Positions 7,451 to 29,873 of a DNA stretch of 64,000 nucleotides are shown here, piece after piece; the stretch's first letter is position 1, and every line of letters begins with the position of its first letter. Both the position numbers and the translations under genes were made by a program. Source of the stretch: Candidatus Omnitrophota bacterium (GTDB lineage: Bacteria; Omnitrophota; Gorgyraeia; Zapsychrales; Zapsychraceae); NCBI GenBank assembly GCA_029261065.1, contig JAJDCB010000030.1:324876-388875 (forward strand), written 5' to 3'. The notes under the pieces were generated by a model, which made no database searches, was not told the origin of the DNA, and worked only from the letters and a program-made list of their open reading frames with translations.

Positions 7451-7460
7451 GGGTTTTAGA

Positions 7461-7642
7461 GCAAGAATAACCAAGTTACAAGAGACAAGGTACAAAAAAG
7501 AAACAAAAATCAATAACCAATTAACCAAACAGTTTGATTATTGGGTTATTGTGAATTGGTTATTTTTTGCCTTTGCGTCTAGAGACGCAGGTCACGGCCA
7601 AAGGCCGTGATATCTTGTACCTTGTAACTTGGTTATTCTTGC
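7461..7642. mobile_element. MITE-like element, copy A (182 bp) with perfect 22-bp terminal inverted repeats GCAAGAATAACCAAGTTACAAG
   Basis: Seen directly. Internal palindromes GCGTCTAGAGACGC and CACGGCCAAAGGCCGTG. Homologous copies at 15320, 41793 and 53507. Confidence 0.75.
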
Positions 7643-7665
7643 TCGTTATTCAAACTAGGATAATT

Positions 7666-8454: not shown

Positions 8455-8455
8455 A

Positions 8456-10127: not shown

Positions 10128-10983
10128 GAAATTTTTAAAAAAGATGTTTAATTCAACACGAACGCCGATAATAAATTTTGGTTTAGCCGATTTATCTCAA
10201 CAAGCGCAAAGATTAGCTGGAAAACTGTCCATCTCGGGTGTTCAGCCAAAATTATCCGTTAAGTTGGATAAAAAAAGTAATGAGTTAATTGTTGTTAATG
10301 ATGGGGGCGAATATATATTAAAACCACAAATCGCGACCTTCACGCATATTCCTGAGAATGAACAGTGTTGTATGGATATAGCAGAGAAGTTGGGTATTGA
10401 TATTCCTCTACATTGTTTGTTACCTTTAAAAGATAAAAGCTTTGCCTATGTCGTTAAAAGATTTGATCGAGATAAGGGTACAAAAATTCATCAAGAAGAT
10501 TTTGCGCAATTGCTTGAGCAAAATGATAAGTATAAAGGGTCTGTAGAGCATATTGGTCGAAAGTTAAAAGATATATCCTCAATTCCAGGTTATGATCTCC
10601 AATTGTTTTTTGAAAGGGTTGTCCTTAATTTTATCCTCGGGAATGGTGATGCCCATCTAAAAAATTATTCTATGTTATATAAAGATGGTAACACTCGATT
10701 AACTCCTGCCTATGATATTGTTTGTTCAAAGTTAGTTATCCCCGAGGAAGAAGACTCGGCCTTAACCATTAATGGTAAAAAGAATAATTTAAAAAGGGAT
10801 GATTTTGAGAAGTTAGCTGAGTATTTCAATATTCCTACGAAGGTTCGGTATGAAAAGTTTGAAGGAAAACTTGATGTAATGAACCAATGTATTGAATCTT
10901 CAAATATGAGTCAGGACAAGCAAAAGCGGTTTATCGAGATTATAAATGAGAGATTAAGACGTTTGGAGTTATTAAAAAGATAG
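10120..10983 (+). CDS. hipT: HipT-like Ser/Thr kinase toxin (HipA C-terminal kinase core)
   Basis: HipA catalytic motif GNGDAHLKNYS. Gly-rich loop SISGVQPKLS. Confidence 0.65.
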   Translation: MNEKFLKKMFNSTRTPIINFGLADLSQQAQRLAGKLSISGVQPKLSVKLDKKSNELIVVNDGGEYILKPQIATFTHIPENEQCCMDIAEKLGIDIPLHCLLPLKDKSFAYVVKRFDRDKGTKIHQEDFAQLLEQNDKYKGSVEHIGRKLKDISSIPGYDLQLFFERVVLNFILGNGDAHLKNYSMLYKDGNTRLTPAYDIVCSKLVIPEEEDSALTINGKKNNLKRDDFEKLAEYFNIPTKVRYEKFEGKLDVMNQCIESSNMSQDKQKRFIEIINERLRRLELLKR

Positions 10984-13442: not shown

Positions 13443-13468
13443 ATTGTAAAATGGCAAATTGATGAAAC

Positions 13469-13504
13469 AAGGCAAACCTGTTAGGTTTGCCTTGTTTTTT
13501 TATT
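13469..13504 (+). terminator. rho-independent terminator
   Basis: Stem CAAGGCAAACC / GGTTTGCCTTG followed by a T-run of 8 or more. Confidence 0.7.
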
Positions 13505-13633: not shown

Positions 13634-13661
13634 TTGACTCTTTGTTCCAGTGATCTATAAT
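13634..13661 (+). promoter_or_regulatory. near-consensus sigma70 promoter (TTGACT-16 bp-TATAAT) at the head of the polysaccharide locus
   Basis: TTGACT at 13634-13639 and TATAAT at 13656-13661. Confidence 0.5.
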
Positions 13662-13730
13662 ACTCATGTTCAATAATTGAACAGTCGTTTCAAGGATAAC
13701 CCCCAAATAAAAATTCGTACCTCGAAACTT

Positions 13731-14303
13731 ATGGATCACGAACACATTGATGAACGAGAGTTTGAGCTAATTAATATTGTTGGCGCCAAACTTGGTTCAA
13801 ATCAAAGAGATTTATCCCGCCACATGGACTTATCTTTGGGTTCCATCAATATGCTTTTGCGCAGACTCGTTGCCAAAGGTTTTATTCGCATTAATCAATT
13901 AGATAAAAGAAAAGTAGAATACATTCTCACACCACAAGGATTTACCGAGAAAATGCGTAAATCTATGAAATATACCCTTAAAACAATTAGTTCTATTGCT
14001 CTTATTAAAGATCGATTGAAAGAAGTGTTGTCGCATCTATACAAAGAAGGGGAGCGAAACTTTATCGTTTATGGAAAATCTGATCTCGCCCTTTTGGTTG
14101 CTCCTGTTTTTAATGATATTTCGTCTGATGATATTAAATTAACTTATATTGATCAATTATCGATAGAACAATTGCAGGGAACGCTTCTTGTTTGTCGTGA
14201 AAATTTTGATGCCTCAGCGGTTGATGGTCGCAAATATGTGCATTTACTTGAAGAAATTGCGAGTGACCCAAAATGGGTACAAACTAATTTAAGTTCGGTG
14301 TAA
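13731..14303 (+). CDS. winged-helix (MarR-like) transcriptional regulator with a C-terminal domain of unknown function
   Basis: wHTH segment LSRHMDLSLGSINMLLRRLVAKGFIRI. ATG at 13731 is preferred over the upstream TTG. Confidence 0.45.
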   Translation: MDHEHIDEREFELINIVGAKLGSNQRDLSRHMDLSLGSINMLLRRLVAKGFIRINQLDKRKVEYILTPQGFTEKMRKSMKYTLKTISSIALIKDRLKEVLSHLYKEGERNFIVYGKSDLALLVAPVFNDISSDDIKLTYIDQLSIEQLQGTLLVCRENFDASAVDGRKYVHLLEEIASDPKWVQTNLSSV

Positions 14304-14318: not shown

Positions 14319-15320
14319 ATGCAAAGAAACAAGGTTCTCGTTACAGGTGGAGCCGGTTTTATTGGAAGTCATGTGGTTGATCGACTGTTACAGGATCACC
14401 ATCAGATAACTGTTATTGATAATTTCTCGACGGGAAGACAGGCAAATCTTAATCATCTTAAAAGTAACCCTAATCTAACCATTATTGAAGCCGATATTCG
14501 CGATTTAGCTTCAATTGCGCCTCATTTTCAAAACATCGATATGGTTTTTCATCTAGCGGCATTAGCCGATATCGTACCCTCCATTGTTAATCCAACAGAA
14601 TATTATTCAGCCAATGTTATGGGATCTATGAATGTCCTTGAAGCTTCCCGGCAAGCAGGTGTTAAGCGTTTTGTTTATACCGCATCGTCTTCCTGTTATG
14701 GCATTCCAGATGAAACCGTAGCCACCAAAGAAACTCAAAGTATTGATACGCAATATCCGTATGCATTAACAAAATATATTGGCGAAGAAACCGCTTTTCA
14801 TTGGGCGAACATTTATGATCTACCTCTTGTGTCTTTAAGACTGTTTAATGTTTATGGTCCTCGTTCACGCACATCTGGAACGTATGGGGCTGTGTTTGGT
14901 GTGTTCTTGGCGCAAAAATTAAGTAATAAGCCGTTCACGGTTGTGGGTGATGGTGAACAGACGCGAGATTTTATTTTTGTCACGGATGTTGCTAACGCTT
15001 TTGTGACAGCCGCGTATTCTGAGGTTACCAACGAAGCTTTTAACGTAGGAACAGGAAAACCACAAAGTGTGAATAAGTTGGTGTCGCTTCTTGGTGGAGA
15101 AAAAATTCATATTCCCAAAAGACCTGGGGAACCAGATTGCACGTGGGCCGATATTACAAAGATTAAAAATCAACTGAGTTGGGCGCCGCAGGTTTCGTTT
15201 GAAGAGGGTGTGGGGGAGATTTTAAAAAATATTGATTATTGGAAGGATGCACCGGTTTGGACACCTGAGGCAATTGGAGAAGCTACGGAAGATTGGTTTA
15301 AGTATTTAGGGAAGAGTTAG
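14319..15320 (+). CDS. UDP-glucuronate decarboxylase (UXS/ArnA C-terminal-like) extended SDR
   Basis: VLVTGGAGFIGSHVVDRLL...VIDNFSTGRQANL closely resembles the UXS N-terminus. YxxxK motif present (YALTK). Confidence 0.6.
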   Translation: MQRNKVLVTGGAGFIGSHVVDRLLQDHHQITVIDNFSTGRQANLNHLKSNPNLTIIEADIRDLASIAPHFQNIDMVFHLAALADIVPSIVNPTEYYSANVMGSMNVLEASRQAGVKRFVYTASSSCYGIPDETVATKETQSIDTQYPYALTKYIGEETAFHWANIYDLPLVSLRLFNVYGPRSRTSGTYGAVFGVFLAQKLSNKPFTVVGDGEQTRDFIFVTDVANAFVTAAYSEVTNEAFNVGTGKPQSVNKLVSLLGGEKIHIPKRPGEPDCTWADITKIKNQLSWAPQVSFEEGVGEILKNIDYWKDAPVWTPEAIGEATEDWFKYLGKS

Positions 15321-15551: not shown

Positions 15552-17087
15552 ATGAGCACTAACACAACAGAAAATAAAATCAAACCACGAGCCGAGTTAG
15601 CAAAGATCATTGCCCAAGAGAAAAAAAAGGGCAAGAAGGTCGTATTGTGTCATGGAGTTTTTGATTTGGTGCATTTAGGCCATATTCGTCATTTTAAGCA
15701 AGCGAAAAAAGAAGCGGATCTTCTCATTGTTTCGATTACAAAAGACAAACATGTCAAGCGCGGTCCGGGACGCCCTGTCTTTAATGAAATGTTGCGGGCT
15801 GAAACATTAGCGTCATTAGCGATGACCGATTATGTCTCTATTGTTGATTCTCCGACGGCCACAGATTTTATTAAAGCGATTAAACCAGACTTTTATGCCA
15901 AAGGTAACGACTATAAAGCTAAGGATAAAGATGTTACGGGGAAAATCTATGAAGAAGAAGACGCTATTGAATCCGTGGGAGGACGGCTTCTTTTTACGGA
16001 TGATATTACGTTTAGTTCCTCGCATCTCTTAAATAGTTACATTGATGCCTATCCGCCACAAACGACCAAGTTTTTACGAGCTTTAAAGAAGCGTTTTAGT
16101 GCTGATGATGTTATTCATTCTCTTGAAAAAGTAAAAAAGCTTAAAGCCTTGGTCATTGGTGATGCGATTATTGATCAGTATCATTACTGCAATCCTATGG
16201 GAAAATCCTCGAAAGAGCATCTTGTTGTGAATAAATATGAGTCTGAAGAGATGTTTGCTGGAGGAACGCTTGCGACGGCTAACAATGTGGCCAGCATTTG
16301 TGGAGAGGTTGATATGGTGACACTTTTAGGTCGAGAAAATGATCAGAAAGATTTTATAGAGAGTAAATTAGCCAAAAACGTTAATCCTATTTTTTTCTAT
16401 AGAGACGATGCCAATACGATTATTAAAAGGCGCTATGTTAATCAAGGTTCGGGGCGGAAGCTATTTGAAGTGTGTTTTATGAATGATGAAGAGATTAATA
16501 AAGATGTCGAATCTCAAATAAAGAAGTTTCTTCAAGCCTCGCTAAAAAAGTATGATGTGGTGGTTGTCTCAGATTTTGGACATGGTTTGTTAAGTAAGAA
16601 TTTGATTAAGCTCATTTGTCAGAAATCGAAATATTTAGCCGTTAATGTTCAAACAAATAGCGCCAATATTGGTTTTAATCTTGTTACGAAATATCCTTCG
16701 GCTAATTGTGTTTGTATCGATGAAATGGAGTTGCGATATGCAACACATGATAAGTTGGGGGATCTTAGAACGCACGCGAAGAAAGTGTACAGCCAAATGA
16801 ATTGTGATCATATTATTGCGACACGCGGTCCGCATGGATCGATTTGTTATTCAGAAGAAGCTGGATATCACAATACACCCGCTTTTGCCTATCGTGTTGT
16901 TGATGCTATTGGTGCGGGGGATGCCTTTTTTGCATATGTCGGCCCATGTTTTGCAGCAGGGTTACCTCAAGAATTGACAGCTTTTGTCGGTAATGCCGTA
17001 GGTTCCTTGGCTGTTCAAATTGTTTGTAATCGAGAGCCGGTTAATTTTGTTGAATTAAGTAAATTTATAACAAGGTTATTAAAATGA
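15552..17087 (+). CDS. bifunctional sugar-phosphate nucleotidyltransferase (cytidylyltransferase-like, N-terminal) / pfkB-family sugar kinase (C-terminal); HldE/RfaE-like with swapped domain order
   Basis: N-terminal HxGH motif CHGVFDLVHLGH. C-terminal pfkB signature DAIGAGDAF. RBS CAGGAGAG. Adjacent to gmhA. Confidence 0.6.
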   Translation: MSTNTTENKIKPRAELAKIIAQEKKKGKKVVLCHGVFDLVHLGHIRHFKQAKKEADLLIVSITKDKHVKRGPGRPVFNEMLRAETLASLAMTDYVSIVDSPTATDFIKAIKPDFYAKGNDYKAKDKDVTGKIYEEEDAIESVGGRLLFTDDITFSSSHLLNSYIDAYPPQTTKFLRALKKRFSADDVIHSLEKVKKLKALVIGDAIIDQYHYCNPMGKSSKEHLVVNKYESEEMFAGGTLATANNVASICGEVDMVTLLGRENDQKDFIESKLAKNVNPIFFYRDDANTIIKRRYVNQGSGRKLFEVCFMNDEEINKDVESQIKKFLQASLKKYDVVVVSDFGHGLLSKNLIKLICQKSKYLAVNVQTNSANIGFNLVTKYPSANCVCIDEMELRYATHDKLGDLRTHAKKVYSQMNCDHIIATRGPHGSICYSEEAGYHNTPAFAYRVVDAIGAGDAFFAYVGPCFAAGLPQELTAFVGNAVGSLAVQIVCNREPVNFVELSKFITRLLK

Positions 17088-17695
17088 GAGAAGCCATAAG
17101 AGAGAGTCGGTCTAGTTTAAAGAGTTTATTAGATAAAATTGAAGCAAGTGATGTTAGTGGAGGATTGTTATTTGAAGAGGCTGTTGAGTGCGCTGTTAAT
17201 ATTATCTTAGATTGCAAAAAATCGAACGGTAAGCTCATGGTGATCGGCAATGGAGGAAGTGCCGCTATTGCCAGTCATATCGCTACTGACTTTTGGAAAA
17301 ATGCTAAGGTCAAAGCGATGGCTTTTAATGACAGCGTGCACTTAACGTGTGTGAGTAACGATAATGGGTATGAACAAGTCTTTGAATATGGTGTTAACAC
17401 GTTTGGGGAATCAGAAGATGTGTTAATCGCCATTAGTAGTTCGGGACAATCTCCTAATATTTTAAGAGCAGCACAGGCCGCCCGCGATAAAGGAATAAAG
17501 GTCATCACATTATCAGGCTTTAAACAAGACAATATGTTGCGCGCTTTAGGTGATGTGAATTTTTATGTACCAGCATCTCATTATGGGTATGTAGAGGTTA
17601 TTCATCACTCTATTTGTCATAGTTTTATCGATATAACTATTCAACAAAATAATAAAACCAAGAATCAATCATCATTGGAAAGTGAAATTGTATGA
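17084..17695 (+). CDS. gmhA: sedoheptulose-7-phosphate isomerase (SIS domain)
   Basis: GmhA motifs VIGNGGSAAIASH and SSSGQSPNIL. ATGA overlap with the upstream gene. Confidence 0.8.
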   Translation: MREAIRESRSSLKSLLDKIEASDVSGGLLFEEAVECAVNIILDCKKSNGKLMVIGNGGSAAIASHIATDFWKNAKVKAMAFNDSVHLTCVSNDNGYEQVFEYGVNTFGESEDVLIAISSSGQSPNILRAAQAARDKGIKVITLSGFKQDNMLRALGDVNFYVPASHYGYVEVIHHSICHSFIDITIQQNNKTKNQSSLESEIV

Positions 17696-18690
17696 AAGAA
17701 ATAAAGACAGTACTTGTTACAGGGGGTGCCGGTTATGTTGGCGCTGTTTTAGTTCCAAAGTTGTTAAATGAAGGGTATCACGTCAGAGTGCTTGATTTGT
17801 ATTTGTATGGGGCCGATGTTTTTGATGGTATTGCAGATAAAACAAATTTAGAAGAAATAAAAGGGGATATTAGAGATCAAGAGTTGCTTAAAAAATCTTT
17901 GCAAGGATGTGATGCCGTTATTCATTTGGCATGCATTTCTAATGATCCAAGTTTTGAATTAAATCCAGAATTAGGCAAGTCTATTAATCTTGATGCCTTT
18001 AAACCGTTAGTGGATATATCAAAGGCCGCGGGTGTTGAGCGTTTTATTTATGCTTCAAGTTCCAGTGTTTATGGCATCAAAGAAGACCCTGAAGTAAGTG
18101 AAGATTTGCCTCTTGATCCGTTAACGGACTATTCCAAATTTAAAGCAGATTGTGAAACCATTCTTCTTGATGCGGCGAGTGATGATTTTACCGTTAATGT
18201 TTTACGACCAGCAACGGTTTGCGGTTATTCTCCTCGGTTAAGGTTAGATTTAACTGTTAACATTTTAACGAATCACGCGATCAATAAAGGTGAGATTACA
18301 GTTTTCGGAGGAGAGCAGCTTCGTCCTAATGTGCATATTGAAGATATCACCACGTTGTATGTTCAGTTGTTAACCTTGCCACATGAGAAGATTCATAAAA
18401 AAATTTTTAATGCGGGTTATGAAAATCATAAGGTTAAAGATATTGCCAATATGGTTAAGGCAACCTTAACACAAAACGTAGAGGTTAAGACGATTCCCTC
18501 AGATGATCATCGTTCCTATCATGTATCATCGAAAAAAATAAAAGAAGAAATTGGTTTTGAGCCAACGCACACCATCGAAGATGCGATTGCAGATATCAAA
18601 CAAGCTTTTGAAGAGAGTAAGGTTCCAAATCCCATGGAAGATAGCAAGTATTACAACGTCAAACGTATGAAGGAAGTTGATCTTAAATGA
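17692..18690 (+). CDS. NAD-dependent nucleotide-sugar epimerase/dehydratase (extended SDR), possibly a heptose-modifying enzyme
   Basis: TGGAGYVG Rossmann motif and YSKFK (YxxxK). Confidence 0.65.
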   Translation: MKEIKTVLVTGGAGYVGAVLVPKLLNEGYHVRVLDLYLYGADVFDGIADKTNLEEIKGDIRDQELLKKSLQGCDAVIHLACISNDPSFELNPELGKSINLDAFKPLVDISKAAGVERFIYASSSSVYGIKEDPEVSEDLPLDPLTDYSKFKADCETILLDAASDDFTVNVLRPATVCGYSPRLRLDLTVNILTNHAINKGEITVFGGEQLRPNVHIEDITTLYVQLLTLPHEKIHKKIFNAGYENHKVKDIANMVKATLTQNVEVKTIPSDDHRSYHVSSKKIKEEIGFEPTHTIEDAIADIKQAFEESKVPNPMEDSKYYNVKRMKEVDLK

Positions 18691-19316
18691 TTCAAACCGA
18701 GACGTCTATTTTTGGGATTGATTTTGATAACACCATTGTTTGTTACGATGAGGTGATTCATCGTAAGGCTGTTGAATGGGGTTTGATTGATGTTAATTTC
18801 TCAAAAAATAAAAAGTTGATACGTGATGCTATTCGTCAATTAGAAGATGGTGAGATGACTTGGCAGAAATTACAGGCTTATATTTATGGAGAGGGAATGG
18901 GCGAGGCGCGTTTGATTGACGAGGCGGCAACCTTCATTAAGAGTTGTCTGAAAAGTGATATTGATGTTTTTATTGTCAGTCACAAAACAGAATTTGCCAA
19001 TATGATCCCTAATGGCATCAATTTAAGAGAGCAGGCCTTAAACTGGATGGCGGAGAAGAATTTCTTCAAGCAAGAGGGTTTAGGCTTAAAAGAAAACCAA
19101 GTGTATTTTGAGTCAACGCGAGCGGGAAAATGTCAGAGGATCAAGGACCTTAACTGTACGCATTTTGTGGATGATTTGTTAGAGACATTTGAAGAGCCGT
19201 CTTTTCCAAAAGACGTTACAAAAATTTTATATGCCCCGGATTTAGAAAAGAAAGAGAGTCAGGCCATGACAGTTTTTAACCAATGGAAGGATATTAATGA
19301 GTGCTACTTTAGTTGA
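18687..19316 (+). CDS. HAD-superfamily phosphatase (candidate heptose bisphosphate phosphatase)
   Basis: DFDNT (DxDxT) motif I near the N-terminus. ATGA overlap. Heptose-gene context. Confidence 0.4.
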   Translation: MIQTETSIFGIDFDNTIVCYDEVIHRKAVEWGLIDVNFSKNKKLIRDAIRQLEDGEMTWQKLQAYIYGEGMGEARLIDEAATFIKSCLKSDIDVFIVSHKTEFANMIPNGINLREQALNWMAEKNFFKQEGLGLKENQVYFESTRAGKCQRIKDLNCTHFVDDLLETFEEPSFPKDVTKILYAPDLEKKESQAMTVFNQWKDINECYFS

Positions 19317-20370
19317 TACGGAACAAATTCCTTTAAATGAAGTGTTAACGATCGTCTCTGCGATGACGAAGAAGGCTATCGATCAAGTCCAACCGTTGAC
19401 AGGGGGGAAAAATAGTCGGGTTTTTAAATTAACAACATCCGATAATAAGAATTACGCTGCAAAATTTTATTTTCGAGATTCGTCAGATAAAAGAGATCGA
19501 TTGAATAATGAATATGGATCATTAGAAAAATTAGCAAAATATCAGGTTAAACACATTCCGCAACCGATTGCGATTTCAAAAGAACATTCGTGTGCGATTT
19601 ATTCGTTTCTTGAAGGTTCTGCAAAAAGAGATATCAAGAAAAAAGATATCGATGCTGCTATTAAGTTTATGACGCAGTTGAAGACAGTGCGAAAAAAATG
19701 TCAAGCGAATGATTTTATTGTGGCCTCTGAAGCGCATTTCTCTATGGTTGAAGTTTACAAACATGTTTATGACAGGCTTACAAAGTTGATGGCTATCGAG
19801 AATGATGAACCTATCTATAAAGACCTTTCTAATTTCTTAATCAGAGATTTATCACAAGTCTTTGTTCATCTACAAAGTTGGATGATAACGCAATGTGATA
19901 AAGAGGGCTTTGGTTTTTATGAACCTTTGGCCCAAGAAGACCGTATTCTTAGCCCATCAGACTTTGGATTTCATAATGCTCTATGTGATTCAAAAGGAGG
20001 GTGGACCTTTGTTGATTTTGAATATTTTGGATGGGATGATCCCGCCAAAATGATTTCAGATTTTCTCCTACATCCAGCGATGAATTTAACAGATGAGATG
20101 CGGCAATATTTTTTCCAAAAAGCGTGTGCATCTATGAAAACGGTTAACCCCAAAATAGCCAAACGTGTTGAGTTGATGTGTCCTTTGTTTGGGTTAAAGT
20201 GGTGTCTTATTTTTCTTAATGAATTTCTTCCCTCAGACTGTAATCGAAGGCATTTTGCAAATACCACATCCTTTGATGCCGATACGGTGCGTGAACTACA
20301 ACTAACAAAAGCAAAAGCGATGTTTAAACGCGTTTCAAACGTTTATAAAGAGTTTCCTTATCATGCCTAA
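19297..20370 (+). CDS. aminoglycoside/choline-kinase-like phosphotransferase (APH fold)
   Basis: Catalytic HN and DFE motifs (FGFHNALCD...FVDFEYFG). Confidence 0.55.
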   Translation: MSATLVDTEQIPLNEVLTIVSAMTKKAIDQVQPLTGGKNSRVFKLTTSDNKNYAAKFYFRDSSDKRDRLNNEYGSLEKLAKYQVKHIPQPIAISKEHSCAIYSFLEGSAKRDIKKKDIDAAIKFMTQLKTVRKKCQANDFIVASEAHFSMVEVYKHVYDRLTKLMAIENDEPIYKDLSNFLIRDLSQVFVHLQSWMITQCDKEGFGFYEPLAQEDRILSPSDFGFHNALCDSKGGWTFVDFEYFGWDDPAKMISDFLLHPAMNLTDEMRQYFFQKACASMKTVNPKIAKRVELMCPLFGLKWCLIFLNEFLPSDCNRRHFANTTSFDADTVRELQLTKAKAMFKRVSNVYKEFPYHA

Positions 20371-21193
20371 TCAAATATTAGACTACAAAACAAAACTAGA
20401 TGCGCGTTCAAAGTATCTTCGATCGCAGATTATTAAGGGACTCCGAGCTGGTCGTCGTGGGCATATTGGTGCTTCATTTTCATTAGTTGAAATTATGCGT
20501 GTGCTTTACGATGATATTTTAAAGTTTGATGCCACTAATCCTTCATGGAGTCAACGGGATCGTTGTATTTTAAGTAAAGGTCATGGGTGTTTGGCGTTGT
20601 ATGTGATGTTGGTTGATAAAGGGTTTATTCCAGAAGAAGAGCTTCTGAAGTTTTGTCAGGTTGACGGTATTTTAGGTGGGCATCCGGAACATAAAGTGGC
20701 TGGGGTTGAGGCCTCTACTGGAAGTTTGGGGCATGGATTATCGATTGGTTTGGGAATGGCGATCAATGCACGATACGAAAAAAATGGTGCGCGTGTGTTT
20801 GTTATTCTTGGAGATGGCGAAAGTAATGAAGGATCGGTTTGGGAGGCGGCGATGAGTGCAGGGAAAAATAAGCTAGAAAATTTGGTTGTCATGGTGGATT
20901 ACAACAAACATCAATCTTATGCCTCAACCTTTGAGGTTCAAGATTTAGAACCGTTTGCCGATAAGTGGCGCGCCTTTAACTTTGCAGTCAGTGAAGTCGA
21001 TGGTCATGATGTAAAGCAATTGAAAGAAGCGTTACAAAAACCTTCAAAAGAAGGAAAACCAACCGCTATTATTTGTCACACGGTTAAAGGCAAAGGGGTG
21101 CCTTACGCGGAAGGCAACATGCAATGGCATCATAAGAGTCGGATTTCAGATGAAGATATCAATTCCCTTTTAGAAGAAGTCGAGAAATATTAA
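20363..21193 (+). CDS. transketolase, N-terminal (ThDP-binding) subunit of a split transketolase
   Basis: GHxG and ThDP motif GDGESNEGSVWEA. Overlaps the upstream gene by 8 nt. Confidence 0.8.
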   Translation: MPNQILDYKTKLDARSKYLRSQIIKGLRAGRRGHIGASFSLVEIMRVLYDDILKFDATNPSWSQRDRCILSKGHGCLALYVMLVDKGFIPEEELLKFCQVDGILGGHPEHKVAGVEASTGSLGHGLSIGLGMAINARYEKNGARVFVILGDGESNEGSVWEAAMSAGKNKLENLVVMVDYNKHQSYASTFEVQDLEPFADKWRAFNFAVSEVDGHDVKQLKEALQKPSKEGKPTAIICHTVKGKGVPYAEGNMQWHHKSRISDEDINSLLEEVEKY

Positions 21194-21194
21194 T

Positions 21195-22139
21195 ATGCGA
21201 AAAACAGCTCTTAACTGTGTTTATGAATTAGCGAAATCTAACCCGGATATCTTTTTTATCGGATCTGATTTAGGCGTTGATACCTTAAAAGCATTTAAAG
21301 AAGAGATGCCTGAGCGTTTTTTGATGGAGGGGGTGAGTGAAGCCAATGTTGTTGGCATGGCTGCCGGTCTTGCTCTTGAGGGAAAGACGGTTTATGTCAA
21401 TACCATCGCAACGTTTTTAACCCGTCGTTGTTTTGAACAGGTTGTTTTGGATTTGGGGTTACATAATGTTAAGGTTCGCTTGATTGGAAATGGCGGCGGT
21501 GTTGTTTATGCCCCGTTAGGCCCAACACATTTAGCGATTGATGATATTGCTATCATGAGAGCCATTCCTAATGTGACCATTGTTGCCTGCGCGGATGCCG
21601 TTGAGATGAAGAAGTTGATTGTCCAAACCGTTGATTATCCAGGTCCTATGTACATTCGTTTAGCTAAAGGGCATGATCCTTTGGTGACGCAAGAAGAGAC
21701 TCCGTTTGAAATTGGTAAAGCGATTCGTATGAAGAGGGGAGATGATGGATTGATTTTAACAACGGGCATTACATTACGAACAGCTCTTGAGGCGATAAAA
21801 ACATTAGAAGTTCAAGGATTAGATGTGGGTATTGTACATGTCCCGACGATCAAACCGTTGGATACAGATTTTATTCGTACTCAAATTGATGCTGTCCCAT
21901 TAGTAGTCAGTGTCGAGGAGCACACCATTATGGGTGGATTAGGAAGCGCGATTGCTGAGTTGATTGCCGAATCAACGTTTGAAGCACCAAAAGGATTTAA
22001 ACGTATTGGTATTCCAGATATTTTTCCAGATCAATATGGGTCACAAGATAGTTTGATGGAGAGGTGCGGGGTATCTGCTGGAGCTATTGTTGCTGCGATT
22101 TGGGAAATCAGTAAGAAGTATGTAGTAAGTAGTAGGTAG
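21195..22139 (+). CDS. transketolase, C-terminal (pyrimidine-binding) subunit
   Basis: Transketolase pyrimidine-domain blocks. Starts 1 nt after the upstream stop. Confidence 0.8.
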   Translation: MRKTALNCVYELAKSNPDIFFIGSDLGVDTLKAFKEEMPERFLMEGVSEANVVGMAAGLALEGKTVYVNTIATFLTRRCFEQVVLDLGLHNVKVRLIGNGGGVVYAPLGPTHLAIDDIAIMRAIPNVTIVACADAVEMKKLIVQTVDYPGPMYIRLAKGHDPLVTQEETPFEIGKAIRMKRGDDGLILTTGITLRTALEAIKTLEVQGLDVGIVHVPTIKPLDTDFIRTQIDAVPLVVSVEEHTIMGGLGSAIAELIAESTFEAPKGFKRIGIPDIFPDQYGSQDSLMERCGVSAGAIVAAIWEISKKYVVSSR

Positions 22140-22251
22140 AAAGATAAAAGAGAATTAAGTAAGGAGTAAGTCGTAGGTGGTAGGTAGAAATGTGTTTTTG
22201 TTTTCTACTTACAACATACAACTTACTACCTACCGAACTAAAGGAGCAAGC

Positions 22252-22914
22252 ATGAGTCAACTATGTAACATCGTCACCCCATTACACCAACGGACATCAA
22301 GAAAATATATTGATCGGATGGTCGATGAAAAAGTTCAGTGTATGTATAAAGCGAAAGAATACGAGTTTGACTATTGGGATGGGGATAGAAGATTTGGGTA
22401 TGGCGGTTATAAATATGATGGGCGATGGAAAGAGGTTGCTGAACGTTTTATTGAACGTTATCAATTAAAGAGTGATGCCAAGATTTTGGATATTGGTTGC
22501 GGGAAGGCTCATTTGTTACATGAATTAAAAGAGTTGTTACCTGATGCTGAAGTTGTCGGGTTTGACATCTCCGACCATGGTATTAGTGATGCTCCAAAAG
22601 AGATTCGTGAGAATCTTTTTCGATATCGTGCTCAAGATAAATATCCTTGGGGTGATAAGCATTTTGATTTGGTTTTATCGTTAGGGTGCTTTCATAATCT
22701 ACGGATTTTCGAATTGGAATCCGCAGTTAAAGAAATGGAACGTGTCGGTAAAAATAAATACATTATGTTAGAAAGTTACCGCAACGAACTCGAACTCTTT
22801 AACCTCCAGTGCTGGGCCTTAACCTGCGAATCTTTTTTTGATACCGCAGAATGGATTTGGTTGTATCGGCATTTTGGGTATACGGGGGATTATGAGTTTA
22901 TTTATTTTGAATAA
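22252..22914 (+). CDS. class I SAM-dependent methyltransferase
   Basis: Motif I ILDIGCGKAHLL. RBS AAGGAG. The longer ORF start was rejected. Confidence 0.7.
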   Translation: MSQLCNIVTPLHQRTSRKYIDRMVDEKVQCMYKAKEYEFDYWDGDRRFGYGGYKYDGRWKEVAERFIERYQLKSDAKILDIGCGKAHLLHELKELLPDAEVVGFDISDHGISDAPKEIRENLFRYRAQDKYPWGDKHFDLVLSLGCFHNLRIFELESAVKEMERVGKNKYIMLESYRNELELFNLQCWALTCESFFDTAEWIWLYRHFGYTGDYEFIYFE

Positions 22915-23022: not shown

Positions 23023-23325
23023 ATGATGACTAAAGATGATGTTGTTAAAATTCTTCGAGAAGAACAACCTTACTTAAAAAAAGAATTTGGTATAAAGAGA
23101 ATGGCTATATTTGGTTCTTTTGCGAAAAATACAGCCTCGGAATTAAGTGATGTTGATATTTTTATTGAATTTGATGGACGGTTAGGACTTAGATTCATGG
23201 AATTGGTTGAATATTTAGAAAAAAAACTAAATAGAGAGGTAGACATTCTGACACCAGGCGGTATGGAAGGAATTCGGGTAAAGAAAGTTGTTGAAGAAAT
23301 TCAAAGGAGTTTGTTAGATGTCTAA
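23023..23325 (+). CDS. MNT-type nucleotidyltransferase antitoxin
   Basis: GSFAKNTASELSDVDIFIEF nucleotidyltransferase motif (GS-x9-DxD). Confidence 0.7.
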   Translation: MMTKDDVVKILREEQPYLKKEFGIKRMAIFGSFAKNTASELSDVDIFIEFDGRLGLRFMELVEYLEKKLNREVDILTPGGMEGIRVKKVVEEIQRSLLDV

Positions 23326-23665
23326 ACGAGGAGATATTGAATTATTGAGCGATATTCAAGAGGCTATTAAAAGGATTTTTGAATATCGAGGACATATGAG
23401 TTACGAGCAGTTTATGGAAGATTTGAAAACTCAAGATGCGATTGTTAGAAATATGGAAATTGTTGGTGAGGCTGTGAAAGGTTTATCTGATGAGCTAAAA
23501 GGAAAATATCCACAAGTTTCTTGGAGTGAGTTAGCAAAAGTAAGAGATAAATTGATTCACCATTATTTTGGTGTAAATTATGACATTGTAATTGAAATCA
23601 TTGATGAAAATTTACCTAAAGTTCAACAGCATATTGAAGAAATTTCGGGTCAGATGTCAGGGTAG
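23318..23665 (+). CDS. HepT-type (DUF86) RNase toxin
   Basis: R-x4-H-x-Y motif (RDKLIHHY). 8-nt overlap with the MNT gene. Confidence 0.7.
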   Translation: MSKRGDIELLSDIQEAIKRIFEYRGHMSYEQFMEDLKTQDAIVRNMEIVGEAVKGLSDELKGKYPQVSWSELAKVRDKLIHHYFGVNYDIVIEIIDENLPKVQQHIEEISGQMSG

Positions 23666-23823: not shown

Positions 23824-24915
23824 ATGCCAAGCCAAACACAGGAACAAGATCAGCAAGTAGATGCCAGCAAGACAAAAACTTCAAAAGCCGCAATTCTCGT
23901 CGAGCTAAACAAACCCCTAGAAATCGCCGAGATCGAATTACCAGAGCAACTTTTTTTTGGACAAGTACGCGTTAAGGTGAAGTACAGCGGCATTTGTGGC
24001 GCGCAGATTAATGAGATTGAGGGGGCGAAGGGGCCGGATAAATTTTTACCGCATTTGTTAGGGCATGAAGGATCCGGTGTGGTTGAAGAAGTTGGTCCGG
24101 GTGTTAAGACTGTCAAAGTTGGTGATCATGTGGTGTTGCATTGGCGTCCGAGTGATGGGTTGCAATGTGAGCCGCCGAATTATTCTTGGAATGGTAAAAA
24201 AGTTAATGCTGGTTGGGTGACCACGTTTAATGAGCGTGCGATTATTTCTGAAAATCGTTTAACAGTGATTCCAAAAGATTTTGATATGCGTATAGCTCCT
24301 CTGTTTGGATGTGCGGTGACAACAGCTGTGGGTGTTATCAATAATGATGCGCAGGTAAAAATGGGGCAATCGGTTGTTGTCTTTGGAGTAGGTGGTGTGG
24401 GTTTAAATATTGTTCAAGCCGCTGAGTTAGCATCAGCAACGCCTATCATTGCCATTGATTTAGTGGAATCTAAATTGACGATGGCGAGAAAGTTGGGTGC
24501 AACTCATAGTTTTCAATCCCAGAAGGTGGATGATTTAAAACAAGCGATTCGAGACATTGTAGGGGAAAAAGGACCAGATGTCATTATTGAAACAACAGGC
24601 AACGCGAGTGTGATTGAAATGGCGTATGAACTGACACACCCGGATGGTAAAACAATTCTTGTTGGTGTTCCTCGAAAAGGTGACAACATCTCTATTTATT
24701 CGTTACCGCTTCATTTTAAGAAAGTATTAACAGGTTCCCACGGTGGCAGCTGTGAACCTCATATTGATATTCCGCGATTAATCCGATTAAAGGAAAGCGG
24801 AAAGCTTAAATTAGATGAGCTGATCACTCATGAATTTAAATTGGAAGAAATTAATAAGGCATTAGAGGTATTAAAATCAGGTGATTCTGGCCGGATTATT
24901 ATTTCGATGGAATAA
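23824..24915 (+). CDS. zinc-dependent medium-chain alcohol dehydrogenase (class III ADH-like)
   Basis: GHEGSG(V) zinc-ligand motif and GxGxxG NAD fold (VFGVGGVGL). Confidence 0.75.
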   Translation: MPSQTQEQDQQVDASKTKTSKAAILVELNKPLEIAEIELPEQLFFGQVRVKVKYSGICGAQINEIEGAKGPDKFLPHLLGHEGSGVVEEVGPGVKTVKVGDHVVLHWRPSDGLQCEPPNYSWNGKKVNAGWVTTFNERAIISENRLTVIPKDFDMRIAPLFGCAVTTAVGVINNDAQVKMGQSVVVFGVGGVGLNIVQAAELASATPIIAIDLVESKLTMARKLGATHSFQSQKVDDLKQAIRDIVGEKGPDVIIETTGNASVIEMAYELTHPDGKTILVGVPRKGDNISIYSLPLHFKKVLTGSHGGSCEPHIDIPRLIRLKESGKLKLDELITHEFKLEEINKALEVLKSGDSGRIIISME

Positions 24916-24917: not shown

Positions 24918-25823
24918 ATGAGTTTAAGGACAATTTTTACTTTTTTGGTTTTGTTTGTGTGTGTTTCTACGTTCTTTGACATAAAAGTGGAAGGCGCGGT
25001 TGAACGTATTGAGTTGGATTATAAATTTACAACCAATACGGTAACAGAGTTTTATTTGTTGTCTCACTTTCTTGATGGAAAGGAAACGATTCGCTTAGGA
25101 GATCAGATTTATGGAGTTGAGAAATCTACCAACGAATTTTTTGTGGACTACTACCTTGATACACCTGATTTGAGTTTGTTAAAAGATGATACATCGTTGC
25201 GGATGCGATCAAGGTTTATTAATGGGCAGTTAAGTAAGAGACTCATTCAATTTAAAACACCAATTAAAGATAATGCAGATGCAAGGTTTGAACATAAGTT
25301 AAAAATTCCTAAAAGTACAGAATTTCAATCCATTACAGATGTTGTTAATTTTCTACAATTACCCACGCATACAAAGAATCGTGTTGTCAGTGAATTGTCT
25401 GACAGCATTAATCTTGCTTCATTACGGGAAGTCGTTGAGATTAATCAGATTAGAACACGGTACTATTTAACCAATGCTAAAGGCAAACCGTTTTATACCA
25501 TTACATTTGATGAGTCGTATGCCAGAAAGGGAATGGATATCATTCCTTTCTTTGAGATAGAATTTGAAATTAATGAAAAGAGAATGGGGCAAGCAAAAGA
25601 GGATGAAGCTAGCGTTTTATTAACTCAGATTCAAGAATTAATTCAAAAAGCCAAATCAACACAAATTTCTATGCATTCGAATAATATTTCGAAGTATAAG
25701 CGTGCCATCAATTCGCTTGGCATTGATACAACGCAAACGAAGGGTATAACGTTTTCATTTGTGTTGGTGATCATAGCTGGTATTTTGATCGGTTTTTATT
25801 TGTTAAAGGAGAGAAAATCATGA
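24918..25823 (+). CDS. CYTH/triphosphate-tunnel-metalloenzyme-like domain protein with N-terminal signal and C-terminal TM anchor
   Basis: N-terminal ELDYK (ExDxK-like), RMRSR (RxR), and C-terminal FEIEFEI (ExExE) strands arranged as in the CYTH fold. C-terminal TM helix. Confidence 0.4.
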   Translation: MSLRTIFTFLVLFVCVSTFFDIKVEGAVERIELDYKFTTNTVTEFYLLSHFLDGKETIRLGDQIYGVEKSTNEFFVDYYLDTPDLSLLKDDTSLRMRSRFINGQLSKRLIQFKTPIKDNADARFEHKLKIPKSTEFQSITDVVNFLQLPTHTKNRVVSELSDSINLASLREVVEINQIRTRYYLTNAKGKPFYTITFDESYARKGMDIIPFFEIEFEINEKRMGQAKEDEASVLLTQIQELIQKAKSTQISMHSNNISKYKRAINSLGIDTTQTKGITFSFVLVIIAGILIGFYLLKERKS

Positions 25824-26509
25824 CGTTACAACAGTTGCAAGACTACTTTACAACCCTTGCCCCTGATAGTGTTTTGGGATTTAGTGTTAATTTAGTGTTA
25901 GCGGCATTTTTAACAACGATTTTAAGTCGTTTTTACATTAAATACGGTCGATCTTATTCCGATCGCCATGTTTTAGCTAACAATTTTATTATCATCACCT
26001 TAACGACCATGATGGTTATTACTGTGATTAAGTCTTCATTAGCTTTGTCTCTGGGATTAGTGGGAGCTCTTTCGATTGTTCGTTTTCGAACAGCTATCAA
26101 GGAACCTGAGGAGTTGGCTTATTTATTTTTATGTATTGGTATTGGATTAGGTCTCGGGGCATCAGCCCGTCGAACAACATTTATTGTTTGTGGCATGATC
26201 TTTTGCATTATTTGGTATCGAGCGAACAAGCGAAAAGAAGTTACGTATCCTAATTTGTCTTTAATTGTTTCAAAGACGATTGGCAATGGGCAAAAGGCGG
26301 TATTAAAAGATTTGATTGAGATTATTAAAAAACATTGCAGCCGTGTGGATGTTATTAGGTTTGAAGAATCTCAAGAGCATCTTGAATCTTCCTTTCATAT
26401 TGAATGTGCTTCGTTTGATAGTGTTCAATTTATACGAGATGACATAAAAAAAGCAGATGATGCGATGCATATTACCTTTATCGATAATAGTGCGGGTAAG
26501 GTTCTTTAA
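25820..26509 (+). CDS. small polytopic membrane protein (DUF4956-like)
   Basis: 3-4 TM helices followed by a soluble C-terminal domain. ATGA overlap. Its position between CYTH/VTC and CotH-like genes is typical of DUF4956. Confidence 0.35.
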   Translation: MTLQQLQDYFTTLAPDSVLGFSVNLVLAAFLTTILSRFYIKYGRSYSDRHVLANNFIIITLTTMMVITVIKSSLALSLGLVGALSIVRFRTAIKEPEELAYLFLCIGIGLGLGASARRTTFIVCGMIFCIIWYRANKRKEVTYPNLSLIVSKTIGNGQKAVLKDLIEIIKKHCSRVDVIRFEESQEHLESSFHIECASFDSVQFIRDDIKKADDAMHITFIDNSAGKVL

Positions 26510-26526
26510 GGGTAGAGAATTCAAAT

Positions 26527-29091: not shown

Positions 29092-29099
29092 TTAATCAT

Positions 29100-29853: not shown

Positions 29854-29873
29854 AAATGCCGGGAGTAAGGTTA

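Follow-up and report, generated by a model that had tools for sequence, protein, structure and literature searches.

The best reading of the genes described here is that they form a self-contained, horizontally mobile nucleotide-sugar cassette, which heads a large surface-polysaccharide locus. We propose, with a confidence that falls a little short of even, that the core of this cassette would make an NDP-heptose-like sugar, to which a ThDP enzyme, here a split transketolase, would then add a two-carbon unit. If this reading is true, surface sugars with branched or extended skeletons would make up a class so far unknown.

Gene organization of the cassette

The window, that is, the whole 64,000-nt stretch of DNA that was analyzed, carries the cassette upstream of a legionaminic-acid-type cluster. 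All genes that the preliminary description placed between 15552 and 22914 were confirmed at their coordinates on the + strand, in the tightly overlapping order NTK, SIS, SDR2, HAD, APH, TKN, TKC and MT (Table 1). That inventory had nevertheless omitted SDR2, inside the interval, and had missed SDR1, the MarR-like gene and the Zn-ADH, which belong to the same conserved cassette. HMM searches bore out the described domains (CTP_transf_like/PfkB, SIS_2, APH, transketolase and methyltransferase), except for the HAD protein of the window, for which the Pfam search gave no match.

Table 1. Features of the cassette and of the insertion within it (window coordinates).
Feature	Coordinates	Strand	Evidence
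MarR-like winged-helix regulator	13677..14303	+	Pfam HTH_24/MarR_2; weak TIGR04176 MarR_EPS match
SDR1, GalE-like NAD-dependent epimerase/oxidoreductase	14319..15320	+	Pfam Epimerase, 207 bits
NTK, nucleotidyltransferase + pfkB kinase, 511 aa	15552..17087	+	Pfam, NCBIfam, alignment, AF2/Foldseek
SIS, GmhA-like SIS-domain sugar-phosphate isomerase	17084..17695	+	Pfam SIS_2
SDR2, putative NDP-sugar oxidoreductase	17692..18690	+	Pfam Epimerase
HAD, HAD-superfamily phosphatase	18687..19316	+	Invariant HAD motifs among orthologues
APH, APH-family small-molecule kinase	19297..20370	+	PF01636 above Pfam cut-off
TKN, split transketolase N subunit (ThDP diphosphate-binding domain)	20363..21193	+	Transketolase_N, 163 bits
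TKC, split transketolase C subunit (pyrimidine-binding + C-terminal domains)	21195..22139	+	Transket_pyr + Transketolase_C
MT, class I SAM methyltransferase, ~220 aa	22252..22914	+	Methyltransf_31/25/11
MNT/HepT-type toxin-antitoxin pair	23023..23665	+	NTP_transf_2 and HepT-like
Zn-ADH, Zn-dependent medium-chain alcohol dehydrogenase	23824..24915	+	ADH_N/ADH_zinc_N

From NTK through TKN, neighboring start and stop codons overlap by 4–20 bp (4 bp between the NTK stop and the SIS start), and a terminator scan from 13.7 to 25 kb found nothing convincing; together, these observations argue that the cassette genes form one operon. A strong terminator (13464–13498) and a promoter-like site (13634–13661, score 11/12) lie upstream of the MarR-like gene. 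This gene occupies the head of the operon, and an HTH homologue of it precedes the cassette in four other loci (L002, L003, L007 and L008).

At the other end, orthologous cassettes have no toxin-antitoxin pair and place MT next to ADH; the pair is therefore an insertion outside the pathway. Orthologues of the Zn-ADH (43–73% identity) lie directly 3' of MT in L008, L028, L079, L040 and L074, so that this enzyme is an accessory member of the cassette, displaced downstream by the insert. MT is a class I SAM enzyme, with orthologues at 45–77% identity; since these are about 220 aa long, its translation probably begins with the ATG at 22252 and not with the GTG at 22177.

A reversed HldE-like fusion and a GmhA-like isomerase form the proposed core

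NTK is an uninterrupted ORF from its ATG to its stop, with an N-terminal cytidylyltransferase-like domain followed by a pfkB kinase. Pfam places CTP_transf_like at residues 50–141 and PfkB at 215–506 of the ORF as read from its GTG (528 aa), numbers that fall by 17 in the 511-aa protein, while NCBIfam assigns the N-terminal half to rfaE_dom_II and the C-terminal half to rfaE_dom_I, the order opposite to that of HldE, as the preliminary description had proposed. Two separate genes or a frameshift artefact had been the concern, and the latter is ruled out by over 4,596 database sequences of ~510 aa that share this domain order at 66–71% identity, by the invariance of the HLGH (nucleotidyltransferase) and GAGD (kinase) motifs in an alignment of 24 sequences, and by the AF2 model (mean pLDDT 81).

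On these profiles and on structure comparison, both halves are closest to HldE domains. Using Foldseek, the closest solved structure to the kinase half was HldA (E 4e-23), ahead of ribokinases (6e-16). None of the NCBIfam scores comes near its equivalog cut-off: NTK reaches 186 (cut-off 521), with 137 (345) for rfaE_dom_I and 106 (181.5) for rfaE_dom_II. PGAP labels the family merely as 'PfkB family carbohydrate kinase'.

The neighboring isomerase presents a similar picture. Its best structure matches are GmhA (E 1e-26), and it scores 110 bits with TIGR00441 gmhA, whose cut-off is 209. Across 45 orthologues, H61, S55, D94, S119, S121 and S124 are kept, E65D and Q172E are invariant, and R69 and D169 are absent, a residue pattern that marks SIS as a distinct subfamily nearest to GmhA. 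Given the low equivalog scores of both proteins and the two invariant SIS substitutions, heptose is a best guess for the core sugar, and the substrate may be other than sedoheptulose-7-phosphate. The NDP-heptose with a two-carbon extension, predicted at the outset, hence stands unevenly: the C2 transfer fits the comparative evidence, and its heptose part is the best guess just given. The finished sugar may also carry phosphate, as that prediction had it.

The split transketolase is replaceable and has an altered acceptor site

Residues are numbered after an E. coli TktA reference sequence, and this numbering proved self-consistent. TKN conserves H26, H66, H100, D155 and N185, and TKC conserves R358, D381, E411 and H473; these residues, those for cofactor and donor included, are kept in all 42 cassette transketolases compared. 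In the window TKC, H461 is replaced by G, D469 by L, R520 by K and S385 by D. Among the 42 enzymes, position 461 is always G, L at 469 gives way only occasionally to Q, G or N, and 520 carries K or T except for single loci with S, V or R; position 385 is variable. The best PDB match of TKC, the canonical split transketolase of C. hydrogenoformans (6yaj, E 4e-52), keeps H, D and R at positions 461, 469 and 520. Judged by these residues, the cassette transketolases are without the canonical acceptor and phosphate contacts and are not housekeeping enzymes.

A two-subunit ThDP enzyme is present in 38 of the 42 loci with full flanks, as a split transketolase in 31 and as an E1 alpha/beta pair in 7. 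Overall, E1 alpha occurs in 17/81 loci, 16 of which lack the transketolase, so the split transketolase and the pyruvate-dehydrogenase-E1-like pair are almost mutually exclusive. In L074 and on an Azospirillum oryzae plasmid, the layout of the window is reproduced with E1 alpha/beta at the transketolase position. This substitution, together with the altered residues, upholds the earlier view that the transketolase is not a housekeeping one. On the NTK tree, the sets of loci with transketolase or E1, with HAD and with MT are interleaved. Since NTK and SIS are equally conserved with and without the transketolase, this interleaving argues that the ThDP enzyme tailors a common product instead of supplying a special precursor.

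E1-type enzymes (alpha-KADH2) are established C2-branching enzymes for keto-sugars, and the same role has been proposed, and is unproven, for the split transketolases of miharamycin and amipurimycin (PMC12247030). The role in C2 addition that the preliminary description ascribed to split transketolases of glycan loci is thus limited to these proposals; no transketolase is known that accepts either ketones or NDP-sugars (PMC12247030).

HAD and APH travel with the transketolase

The HAD phosphatase named in the preliminary description is present: its four motifs (DxDxT, S98, K148 and D162-D163) are invariant in 18 orthologues, 7 of which match PF12710, weakly. An insert of ~80 residues has the size of a C1 cap, and a PDB search gave no relative except phosphoserine phosphatase (E 0.11). 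In APH, K56, D222, N227 and D240 are invariant across orthologues. The nearest folds to its AF2 model (pLDDT 87), among them choline and ethanolamine kinases, corramycin phosphotransferase and NahK, are all distant (TM ~0.55–0.6); by these comparisons, APH is a distinct subfamily.

HAD is accompanied by the APH kinase in 20/21 loci, and the transketolase is also present in 19 of those 20. The HAD-APH-TKN-TKC block is fixed in 25/25 metagenome loci, and fusion proteins join HAD to APH (P0129, P0238) and APH to TK_N (P0244). Many cassettes with NTK and SIS are without HAD, which is also absent from the transketolase class accompanied by radical-SAM enzymes. Because HAD and APH track the transketolase and not the heptose-like core, HAD is probably not the GmhB of the pathway.

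Oxidoreductases and methyltransferase

SDR1 is the most constant neighbor of NTK, lying directly upstream of it in most loci (55–71% identity), and in the PDB it most resembles the UDP-hexose and UDP-HexNAc 4-epimerases 7ys8, 6bwl and 4zrm. The best match of SDR2 is 6vo6/6vo8 (145 bits, the next ~100), which we take to be C. jejuni Cj1427. Cj1427 is a GDP-heptose C4-dehydrogenase (PMC10680097). By this similarity, SDR2 is a candidate for making a keto group on the NDP-sugar. Loci that lack SDR2 have a radical-SAM/SPASM enzyme between SIS and TK, which fits an alternative, anaerobic activation of the acceptor; in some loci, TK is present without either SDR. The MT gene travels with the ThDP enzyme, being present in 23/29 loci with the transketolase and in 3/13 without it.

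Distribution

The cassette is modular and spans many phyla, with at least 588 genome loci. Cultured carriers include Bradyrhizobium, Azospirillum and Solidesulfovibrio, the last with the cassette among pse genes, and the annotations of cassette genes in carriers are generic throughout. Bradyrhizobium iriomotense and Solidesulfovibrio carbinolicus are among these cultured carriers. DegT aminotransferases are frequent neighbors (30 loci). We found no characterised orthologue of the cassette enzymes in the PDB, NCBIfam or the literature, and no description of the cassette in the literature.

Proposed pathway and alternatives

What the analysis shows is which genes are present, how their domains are ordered and conserved, how the genes co-occur or fuse, and which residues they keep or change; from this we infer all substrates and reactions, the core steps by homology, the tailoring steps from comparative genomics and active-site changes. 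In the core, SIS would convert a ketose phosphate, most likely sedoheptulose-7-phosphate, into an aldose phosphate, the HldA-like kinase half of NTK would phosphorylate the anomeric position, and the nucleotidyltransferase half would yield the NDP-sugar. The Cj1427-like SDR2 would then probably oxidise a ring hydroxyl to a ketone, and SDR1 would probably epimerise or reduce the NDP-sugar. The core as proposed has no assigned GmhB-like phosphatase for the conversion of the bisphosphate into the 1-phosphate. In turn, the split transketolase would move a dihydroxyethyl (glycolaldehyde) unit from ThDP to the carbonyl of the NDP-sugar, giving a hydroxyacetyl-branched or two-carbon-extended sugar, and MT and Zn-ADH would act on the newly added group. 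More speculatively, APH and HAD, as one unit with the transketolase, would most likely add a temporary phosphate to the substrate or donor of that enzyme and later take it off again.

An ordinary NDP-heptose pathway, which keeps the more conservative part of the preliminary interpretation, would distribute these roles differently: the split transketolase would only supply sedoheptulose-7-phosphate from pentose phosphates, HAD would be GmhB and complete the classical four steps with SIS and the two halves of NTK, and the SDRs, MT and APH would decorate the product. The window does hold a candidate gene for each classical step, the transketolase retains R358 and D381 as well as every cofactor and donor residue, and polysaccharide loci often include their own precursor-supply genes. 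We nevertheless consider this pathway unlikely, as H461, D469 and R520, which bind the acceptor 2-OH and the sugar phosphate, are altered in the cassette enzymes and kept in the canonical split transketolase, and as the pyruvate-using E1 pair that replaces it elsewhere cannot make sedoheptulose-7-phosphate. Moreover, the cassette occurs in Bradyrhizobium and Azospirillum, in which a normal pentose-phosphate pathway is expected, and HAD tracks TK and APH, not NTK and SIS.

There is also a small chance that the chain is built before activation, with the transketolase adding C2 to an aldose phosphate to give a longer ketose phosphate, e.g. octulose-8-phosphate, which SIS would isomerise, the kinase and HAD would bring to the 1-phosphate, and the nucleotidyltransferase would activate to an NDP-octose or NDP-nonose. 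Such a route would parallel LmbR/LmbN/LmbP/LmbK/LmbO of lincomycin, would give HAD a natural role, and is favored by the deviation of SIS from GmhA at catalytic positions and by the altered acceptor pocket. However, the conservation of NTK and SIS is the same whether a locus has TK, E1 alpha/beta or neither, and these loci interleave on the NTK tree; from pyruvate, E1 alpha/beta would produce a 1-deoxy-ketose, which is unusable by an aldose-ketose isomerase, and yet SIS is present in most E1 loci; and HAD is absent from the radical-SAM-associated class. A role of the ThDP enzyme in making an activated two-carbon acyl unit (glycolyl by TK, acetyl by E1), with which an amino sugar or a nonulosonic acid in this glycan would be acylated, appears very improbable. 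Split transketolases do feed glycolyl units in quinocarcin-type pathways, and the DegT neighbors, the pse genes of Solidesulfovibrio and the legionaminic-acid-type cluster in the window would agree with it, but lipoyl/E2, ACP or acyltransferase partners are not conserved with the cassette, an acetyl-only E1 pair would be redundant with acetyl-CoA, and the tight linkage of NTK, SIS and SDR would be left unexplained.

Comparison with known systems

In ADP-heptose synthesis, HldE, or HldA plus HldC (heptose-7-P kinase and heptose-1-P adenylyltransferase), has the same two catalytic domains as NTK, whose HxGH and GAGD motifs are intact and whose gene likewise adjoins that of a GmhA-like isomerase. 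NTK differs in its reversed domain order, in an identity to HldA of only 22–23%, and in being a separate, very conserved ~510-aa family. Similarly, the cassette transketolases share fold, split architecture and ThDP, metal and donor residues with the housekeeping enzymes (E. coli TktA; 6yaj), and depart from them by H461G, mostly D469L, mostly R520K/T, and a variable S385.

The known or proposed ThDP branching systems (YerE-like lyases; the alpha-KADH2 of aldgamycin, avilamycin and kibdelomycin; the proposed miharamycin and amipurimycin split transketolases) use NDP-keto-sugars as substrates. As in these systems, the two-subunit ThDP enzyme of the cassette lies among NDP-sugar oxidoreductases, aminotransferases and methyltransferases, and TK and E1 alpha/beta can replace each other in a single architecture; the cassette TK keeps H100, in line with a C2 donor that bears a hydroxyl group. 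Those cases come from actinomycete secondary-metabolite clusters, or are YerE-type enzymes in LPS, and 13 other predicted split transketolases are all from Streptomycetes (PMC12247030). The cassette, in contrast, is found in surface-glycan loci of Gram-negative and uncultured phyla, with a heptose-like instead of a 6-deoxyhexose core and a dedicated kinase/phosphatase pair, sometimes fused to TK.

The capsular heptose route of C. jejuni employs GmhA, HddA, GmhB and HddC, followed by the Cj1427 C4-dehydrogenase, epimerases and reductases. Its kinase is of the GHMP type and its guanylyltransferase is a separate protein of the NTP_transferase family. Oxidation of the NDP-heptose at C4 by an SDR provides a 4-keto handle for tailoring (PMC10680097), and 6vo6/6vo8 is likewise the best solved relative of the cassette SDR2. 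The C. jejuni route, unlike the cassette, has neither a ThDP enzyme nor an APH/HAD pair. In the lincomycin octose route, LmbR is a transaldolase, LmbN a GmhA-like isomerase, LmbP a kinase, LmbK a phosphatase and LmbO a nucleotidyltransferase, so that, as in the cassette, a carbon–carbon enzyme of the pentose-phosphate pathway stands beside GmhA/HldE-type activation towards a higher-carbon NDP-sugar. There, the transaldolase forms the carbon–carbon bond before isomerisation, whereas for the cassette transketolase the modular distribution argues for a later step.

Organisation of the gene run

Plus-strand genes run without a break between 13.6 and 25 kb of the window, with a strong terminator (13464-13498) followed by a promoter-like site (13634-13661; 11/12) on the 5' side of the run. 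From the fusion enzyme NTK through the transketolase N subunit, neighbouring genes overlap by 4-20 bp and therefore form one operon. Further downstream, a toxin-antitoxin pair separates the methyltransferase (MT) from the alcohol dehydrogenase (ADH), genes that adjoin each other in orthologous cassettes.

Genes of the cassette region (window positions)
Feature	Position	Strand	Basis
MarR-like regulator	13677-14303	+	Pfam/NCBIfam domain assignment
SDR1, GalE-like SDR	14319-15320	+	
NTK, 511-aa fusion enzyme	15552-17087	+	
SIS-domain isomerase (SIS)	17084-17695	+	
SDR2, second SDR	17692-18690	+	
HAD-type protein (HAD), 209 aa	18687-19316	+	
APH-family kinase (APH)	19297-20370	+	
Transketolase N subunit (TKN)	20363-21193	+	
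Transketolase C subunit (TKC)	21195-22139	+	
Class I methyltransferase (MT)	22252-22914	+	
MNT/HepT toxin-antitoxin pair (MNT-type nucleotidyltransferase and HepT-like RNase)	23023-23665	+	
Zn-dependent alcohol dehydrogenase (ADH)	23824-24915	+	

Core enzymes: the fusion protein, the isomerase and SDR2

The preliminary description had presented NTK as a bifunctional enzyme with a domain order opposite to that of HldE, and both Pfam and NCBIfam bear this out: the N-terminal domain is cytidylyltransferase-like, with rfaE_dom_II as best model, and the C-terminal one is a pfkB kinase, best matched by rfaE_dom_I. NTK is encoded by one ORF, and its full-length orthologues number in the thousands, which rules out the frameshift or two-gene artefact that had been named as a caveat. 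The kinase half matches PF00294 (E 1.4e-20) and TIGR02198 (137 bits), and a Foldseek search with the AF2 model (pLDDT 81) returned HldA (4e84/4e8w; E 4e-23, TMt 0.85) as its closest structures, seven orders of magnitude ahead of the best ribokinase (E 6e-16). The nucleotidyltransferase half matches PF01467 and TIGR02199 (106 bits), and the catalytic motifs HLGH (24 sequences) and GAGD are invariant. Scores stay below the curated HldE cut-offs, both for the full-length model NF008454 (186 vs 521) and for the domain models (137 vs 345 and 106 vs 181.5). Because NTK is closest to HldE/HldA, yet lies far under the cut-offs of all HldE models, we predict by homology that it functions like HldE, but it belongs to a separate family.

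A search of 5.8 billion proteins gave more than 4,596 matches to NTK. The best 120 of these are all about 510 aa long with the identical two-domain order and 66-71% identity, and derive mostly from Omnitrophota and Planctomycetia MAGs; the nearest relatives are only about 70% identical. In cultured strains, PGAP labels the orthologues only as 'PfkB family carbohydrate kinase'. Five other loci (L020-L023 and L033; e.g. L023:521-1006) carry, directly 5' of NTK, a stand-alone gene for a 160-aa cytidylyltransferase-like protein with 51% identity to the N-terminal half of the window enzyme; this nucleotidyltransferase has been either duplicated or split off.

The isomerase was compared with GmhA on the SIS fold, the phosphate-binding serine loop and the catalytic or metal residues H61, E65, Q172 and H180. 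Among 45 orthologues, S55, H61, D94, S119, S121 and S124 are retained, every one has Asp in place of E65 and Glu in place of Q172, R69 and D169 are missing, and position 180 is His in 34. The protein scores 110 against TIGR00441 (cut-off 209). As for SDR2, its closest solved relative is 6vo6/6vo8, which we take to be the GDP-heptose C4-dehydrogenase Cj1427. That activity is documented for Cj1427 (PMC10680097).

Distribution and modularity of the cassette

Scanning genome contigs with a single protein gave no match; an alignment-based rescan covering one genome per GTDB species recovered at least 588 cassette loci. The best 80 of them are spread over Omnitrophota, Planctomycetota, Nitrospirota, Chloroflexota, Desulfobacterota, Bdellovibrionota, Alphaproteobacteria and several archaeal lineages, and their cultured carriers include Bradyrhizobium iriomotense, B. 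sacchari, B. huanghuaihaiense and Terasakiella sp. PR1. When the window proteins were mapped onto the loci, the invariable core proved to be SDR1-NTK, usually with SIS and SDR2, and the accessory sets (TK, MT, HAD, APH and others) differed from locus to locus. The cassette is conserved, mobile and modular.

The ThDP-dependent enzyme illustrates this modularity. Counting only the 42 loci with full 10-kb flanks, 31 have a split transketolase (TK), seven have a PDH-E1-like alpha/beta pair instead, and four have neither. In the full set of 81 loci, 17 have E1 alpha, all but one of them without transketolase. One such locus (L074) reads NTK-SIS-SDR1-SDR2-MT-E1alpha-E1beta-ADH, which is the window layout with TK swapped for E1; on plasmid NZ_CP054615.1 of Azospirillum oryzae KACC 14407 the PGAP annotation gives SDR-SDR-NTK-SIS-SDR-E1alpha-E1beta-DegT-DegT. 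The ThDP enzymes of the cassettes adjoin NDP-sugar SDRs, DegT proteins and C-methyltransferases. This setting and the interchange of TK with E1 alpha/beta give contextual support to a putative keto-sugar branching reaction, in which a C2 unit carried by ThDP would be ligated to an NDP-keto-sugar carbonyl. In a neighbour-joining tree built from NTK, neither the kind of ThDP enzyme (TK, E1 or none) nor the presence of HAD/APH sorts the loci, which are all intermixed, and SIS and NTK of TK-free loci are as similar to the window proteins as those of TK-bearing loci. From these patterns we infer that the ThDP enzyme has an exchangeable yet integral tailoring role, in which it would act on a product common to the loci and would not serve to supply a special precursor.

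An alternative cassette type (L002, L006, L010, L023, L027 and L031) has a 355-aa radical-SAM/SPASM enzyme between SIS and the transketolase, in the position of SDR2/HAD/APH. Four of these loci (L002, L006, L010 and L031) carry a second radical-SAM gene 3' of the methyltransferase. The radical-SAM enzymes match generic SPASM models only, with weak similarity to DesII in L023 and L031.

An altered acceptor site in the split transketolase

To locate functional residues, 42 cassette transketolases were aligned to E. coli TktA, in a reference numbering that agrees with all residue numbers of the literature. The residues that bind cofactor, metal and donor (H26, H66, H100, D155, N185, R358, D381, E411 and H473) are conserved throughout, except for a gap at H26 in L052 that is probably a start-codon or alignment artefact. 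The phosphate-binding H461 is Gly in all 42, and D469, which binds the acceptor 2-OH, is Leu in most of them. Of the other phosphate-binding positions in the same 42 enzymes, R520 is Lys or Thr (with Ser, Val and Arg in one locus each) and S385 is variable. The cassette enzymes therefore carry the ThDP, metal and donor-histidine signature of a canonical transketolase (EC 2.2.1.1) and depart from its acceptor and phosphate signature (H461, D469, R520 and S385). By contrast, the biochemically validated split transketolase of Carboxydothermus hydrogenoformans (6yaj), their best PDB match, retains His, Asp and Arg where they differ. Transketolases of the class without HAD/APH, which adjoin radical-SAM/SPASM enzymes in place of SDR2, have Thr at 520 and Ile at 385.

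H100, which is Phe in DXS, is retained in the cassette enzymes and points to a hydroxylated C2 (dihydroxyethyl) intermediate as the probable reaction species. The altered residues, together with the replacement by E1, argue strongly against a housekeeping role for this transketolase.

A phosphatase and a kinase linked to the transketolase

Of 21 cases, 20 have HAD and APH together, and TK is present in all but one of these 20 loci. A reciprocal scan of metagenome contigs seeded with TKC returned 25 loci in which the upstream sequence extends for 7 kb or more; all 25 contain a fixed HAD-APH-TKN-TKC block, and 19 have NTK at 37% identity or more. Gene fusions occur in other genomes, HAD-APH in P0129 and P0238 (560 aa) and APH-TK_N in P0244 (625 aa), Rosetta-stone evidence suggesting that phosphatase, kinase and transketolase act together.

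All four catalytic motifs are present in HAD, and motifs I and II are separated by an insert of about 80 residues. The window protein has no match in Pfam or NCBIfam, including any GmhB model, and a profile search against the PDB gave phosphoserine phosphatase as its only, marginal, relative. Nor does it have the profile of GmhB, its partners being TK and APH, not NTK and SIS; its co-occurrence with TK/APH and the HAD-APH fusions led us to reject an assignment as GmhB, which is unlikely.

The kinase had been described as an APH-like phosphotransferase, and it passes the PF01636 cut-off. Four residues, K56, D222, N227 and D240, are invariant and correspond to the ATP-binding lysine, the D-x4-N catalytic motif (D222 and N227) and the metal-binding aspartate. 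Its AF2 model (pLDDT 87) adopts the APH fold; the nearest solved structures are distant (TM about 0.55-0.6), with the model equidistant from choline/ethanolamine kinases, antibiotic kinases and NahK. A profile search against the PDB gave marginal matches only, and the AF2 model has no close structural neighbour. HAD and APH belong with the transketolase, not with the heptose core. Our guess is that they would put a transient phosphate on, and then take it off, the transketolase substrate or donor.

The surrounding glycan locus

The surrounding 40 kb form a very large glycan locus with sugar C-methyltransferases, DegT aminotransferases, a formyltransferase, an ABC exporter, a sulfation module and a legionaminic-acid-type cluster. 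Four genes in mid-locus (24918-29795) encode a CYTH-domain protein with a signal/TM segment, a DUF4956 protein, an 854-aa CotH-kinase-like protein and a VTC-domain protein, a combination that suggests an envelope chemistry based on polyphosphate or triphosphate. They are followed (29856-34982) by two sugar C-methyltransferases (PF08484), a 214-aa ORF (30976-31620), a DegT aminotransferase and a formyltransferase. Some start codons are probably miscalled here, as there is an overlap of about 130 bp between the predicted ORFs. The second C-methyltransferase (42% identity) and the 214-aa ORF (46%) match families limited to TK-bearing cassettes (18/18 loci), and they may be part of the same extended pathway.

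Region 44272-48645 resembles a module that activates sulfate for the glycan, and it includes an unusual pyruvate-kinase-barrel fusion: a 728-aa protein joins this barrel to PUA_2 and ATP-sulfurylase, and is followed by an APS kinase and a membrane protein of the sulfatase/phosphodiesterase family. The legionaminic-acid-type genes (42000-58542) comprise a 4,6-dehydratase, a DegT aminotransferase, a PglD-like acetyltransferase, NeuB, a NeuC-like 2-epimerase, a CBS-NTP_transferase, a HisF/HisH-like pair, a GFO oxidoreductase and a CMP-sugar synthetase. The cassette likewise lies among pse genes in Solidesulfovibrio carbinolicus (L084). Just 5' of the glycan locus, region 9786-10983 holds a 113-aa ORF and then the C-terminal domain of a HipA-like kinase toxin (10120-10983); the region follows an uptake operon with a TonB receptor and a FecCD-type ABC system (3269-9436).

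Proposed pathway and alternative explanations

The reading that we prefer, at a little short of an even chance, is that the core makes an NDP-heptose-like sugar to which the ThDP enzyme adds a C2 unit. Mechanistically, the core would convert a ketose phosphate into an NDP-activated aldose. Heptose is the best candidate for this sugar, given that SIS resembles GmhA, the kinase half resembles HldA and the best solved relative of SDR2 (6vo6/6vo8) is presumably Cj1427. A carbonyl would then be made by an SDR, or by a radical-SAM enzyme in anaerobes, and the ThDP enzyme would add the two-carbon unit, hydroxyacetyl in the case of TK and acetyl in that of E1 alpha/beta. The new group would be finished by MT, the Zn-dependent ADH and SDR1.

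Were the cassette a plain heptose pathway, with TK as its supplier of sedoheptulose-7-P, the altered transketolase residues, the replacement of TK by E1 alpha/beta and the link of HAD to TK/APH would all be hard to accommodate, and we regard this explanation as unlikely. Chain extension upstream of activation, as in lincomycin, is similarly improbable in view of the modular distribution of the ThDP enzyme and the presence of SIS in E1 loci. Very little probability falls to the ThDP enzyme as a donor of C2-acyl groups, since the loci are without any conserved carrier or acyltransferase; the rest of the probability is assigned to no explanation.

Returning to C2 addition on an activated heptose-like sugar, we propose more tentatively a wider picture: a large, unrecognised pathway family in hundreds of bacterial and archaeal species, in which a dedicated ThDP enzyme may attach a C2 unit to an NDP-heptose-like sugar by a C-C bond. 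The split TK would be the first natural transketolase with an NDP-keto-sugar acceptor, working in a kinase-transketolase-phosphatase assembly, and the products would be chemically unseen branched or nine-carbon surface sugars. The cassette is found in cultured, genetically tractable strains, with Solidesulfovibrio carbinolicus DSM 3852 (pDCAR1) as a further carrier, making the hypothesis directly testable.

If true, uncharted higher or branched sugars would be part of the envelopes of a great many environmental bacteria, plant-associated Bradyrhizobium and Azospirillum among them. More than 4,500 proteins now called only 'PfkB family carbohydrate kinase' would gain a testable function, as would the linked and equally large APH-like and HAD-like families.

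Comparison with known systems

E1-type enzymes are established C2-branching catalysts of keto-sugars in antibiotic pathways, and for miharamycin and amipurimycin the same role has been proposed for split transketolases but never shown, with further candidates in a bioinformatic survey coming from Streptomycetes only (PMC12247030). If our reading is true, natural transketolases carboligate onto nucleotide sugars, a reaction so far proposed for two actinomycete antibiotics and undemonstrated; biocatalysis groups seek such a transketolase for functionalised tertiary alcohols. The bradyrhizose cluster, as published, is a separate 11-gene operon unlike the cassette, and we found no description of the cassette among curated models, solved structures and the reachable literature. 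Taken globally, the cassette would combine known kinds of chemistry, HldE-type activation and ThDP-dependent sugar branching, and what is unusual in it is the reversed fusion, the naturally re-engineered transketolase pocket and the kinase-transketolase-phosphatase unit.
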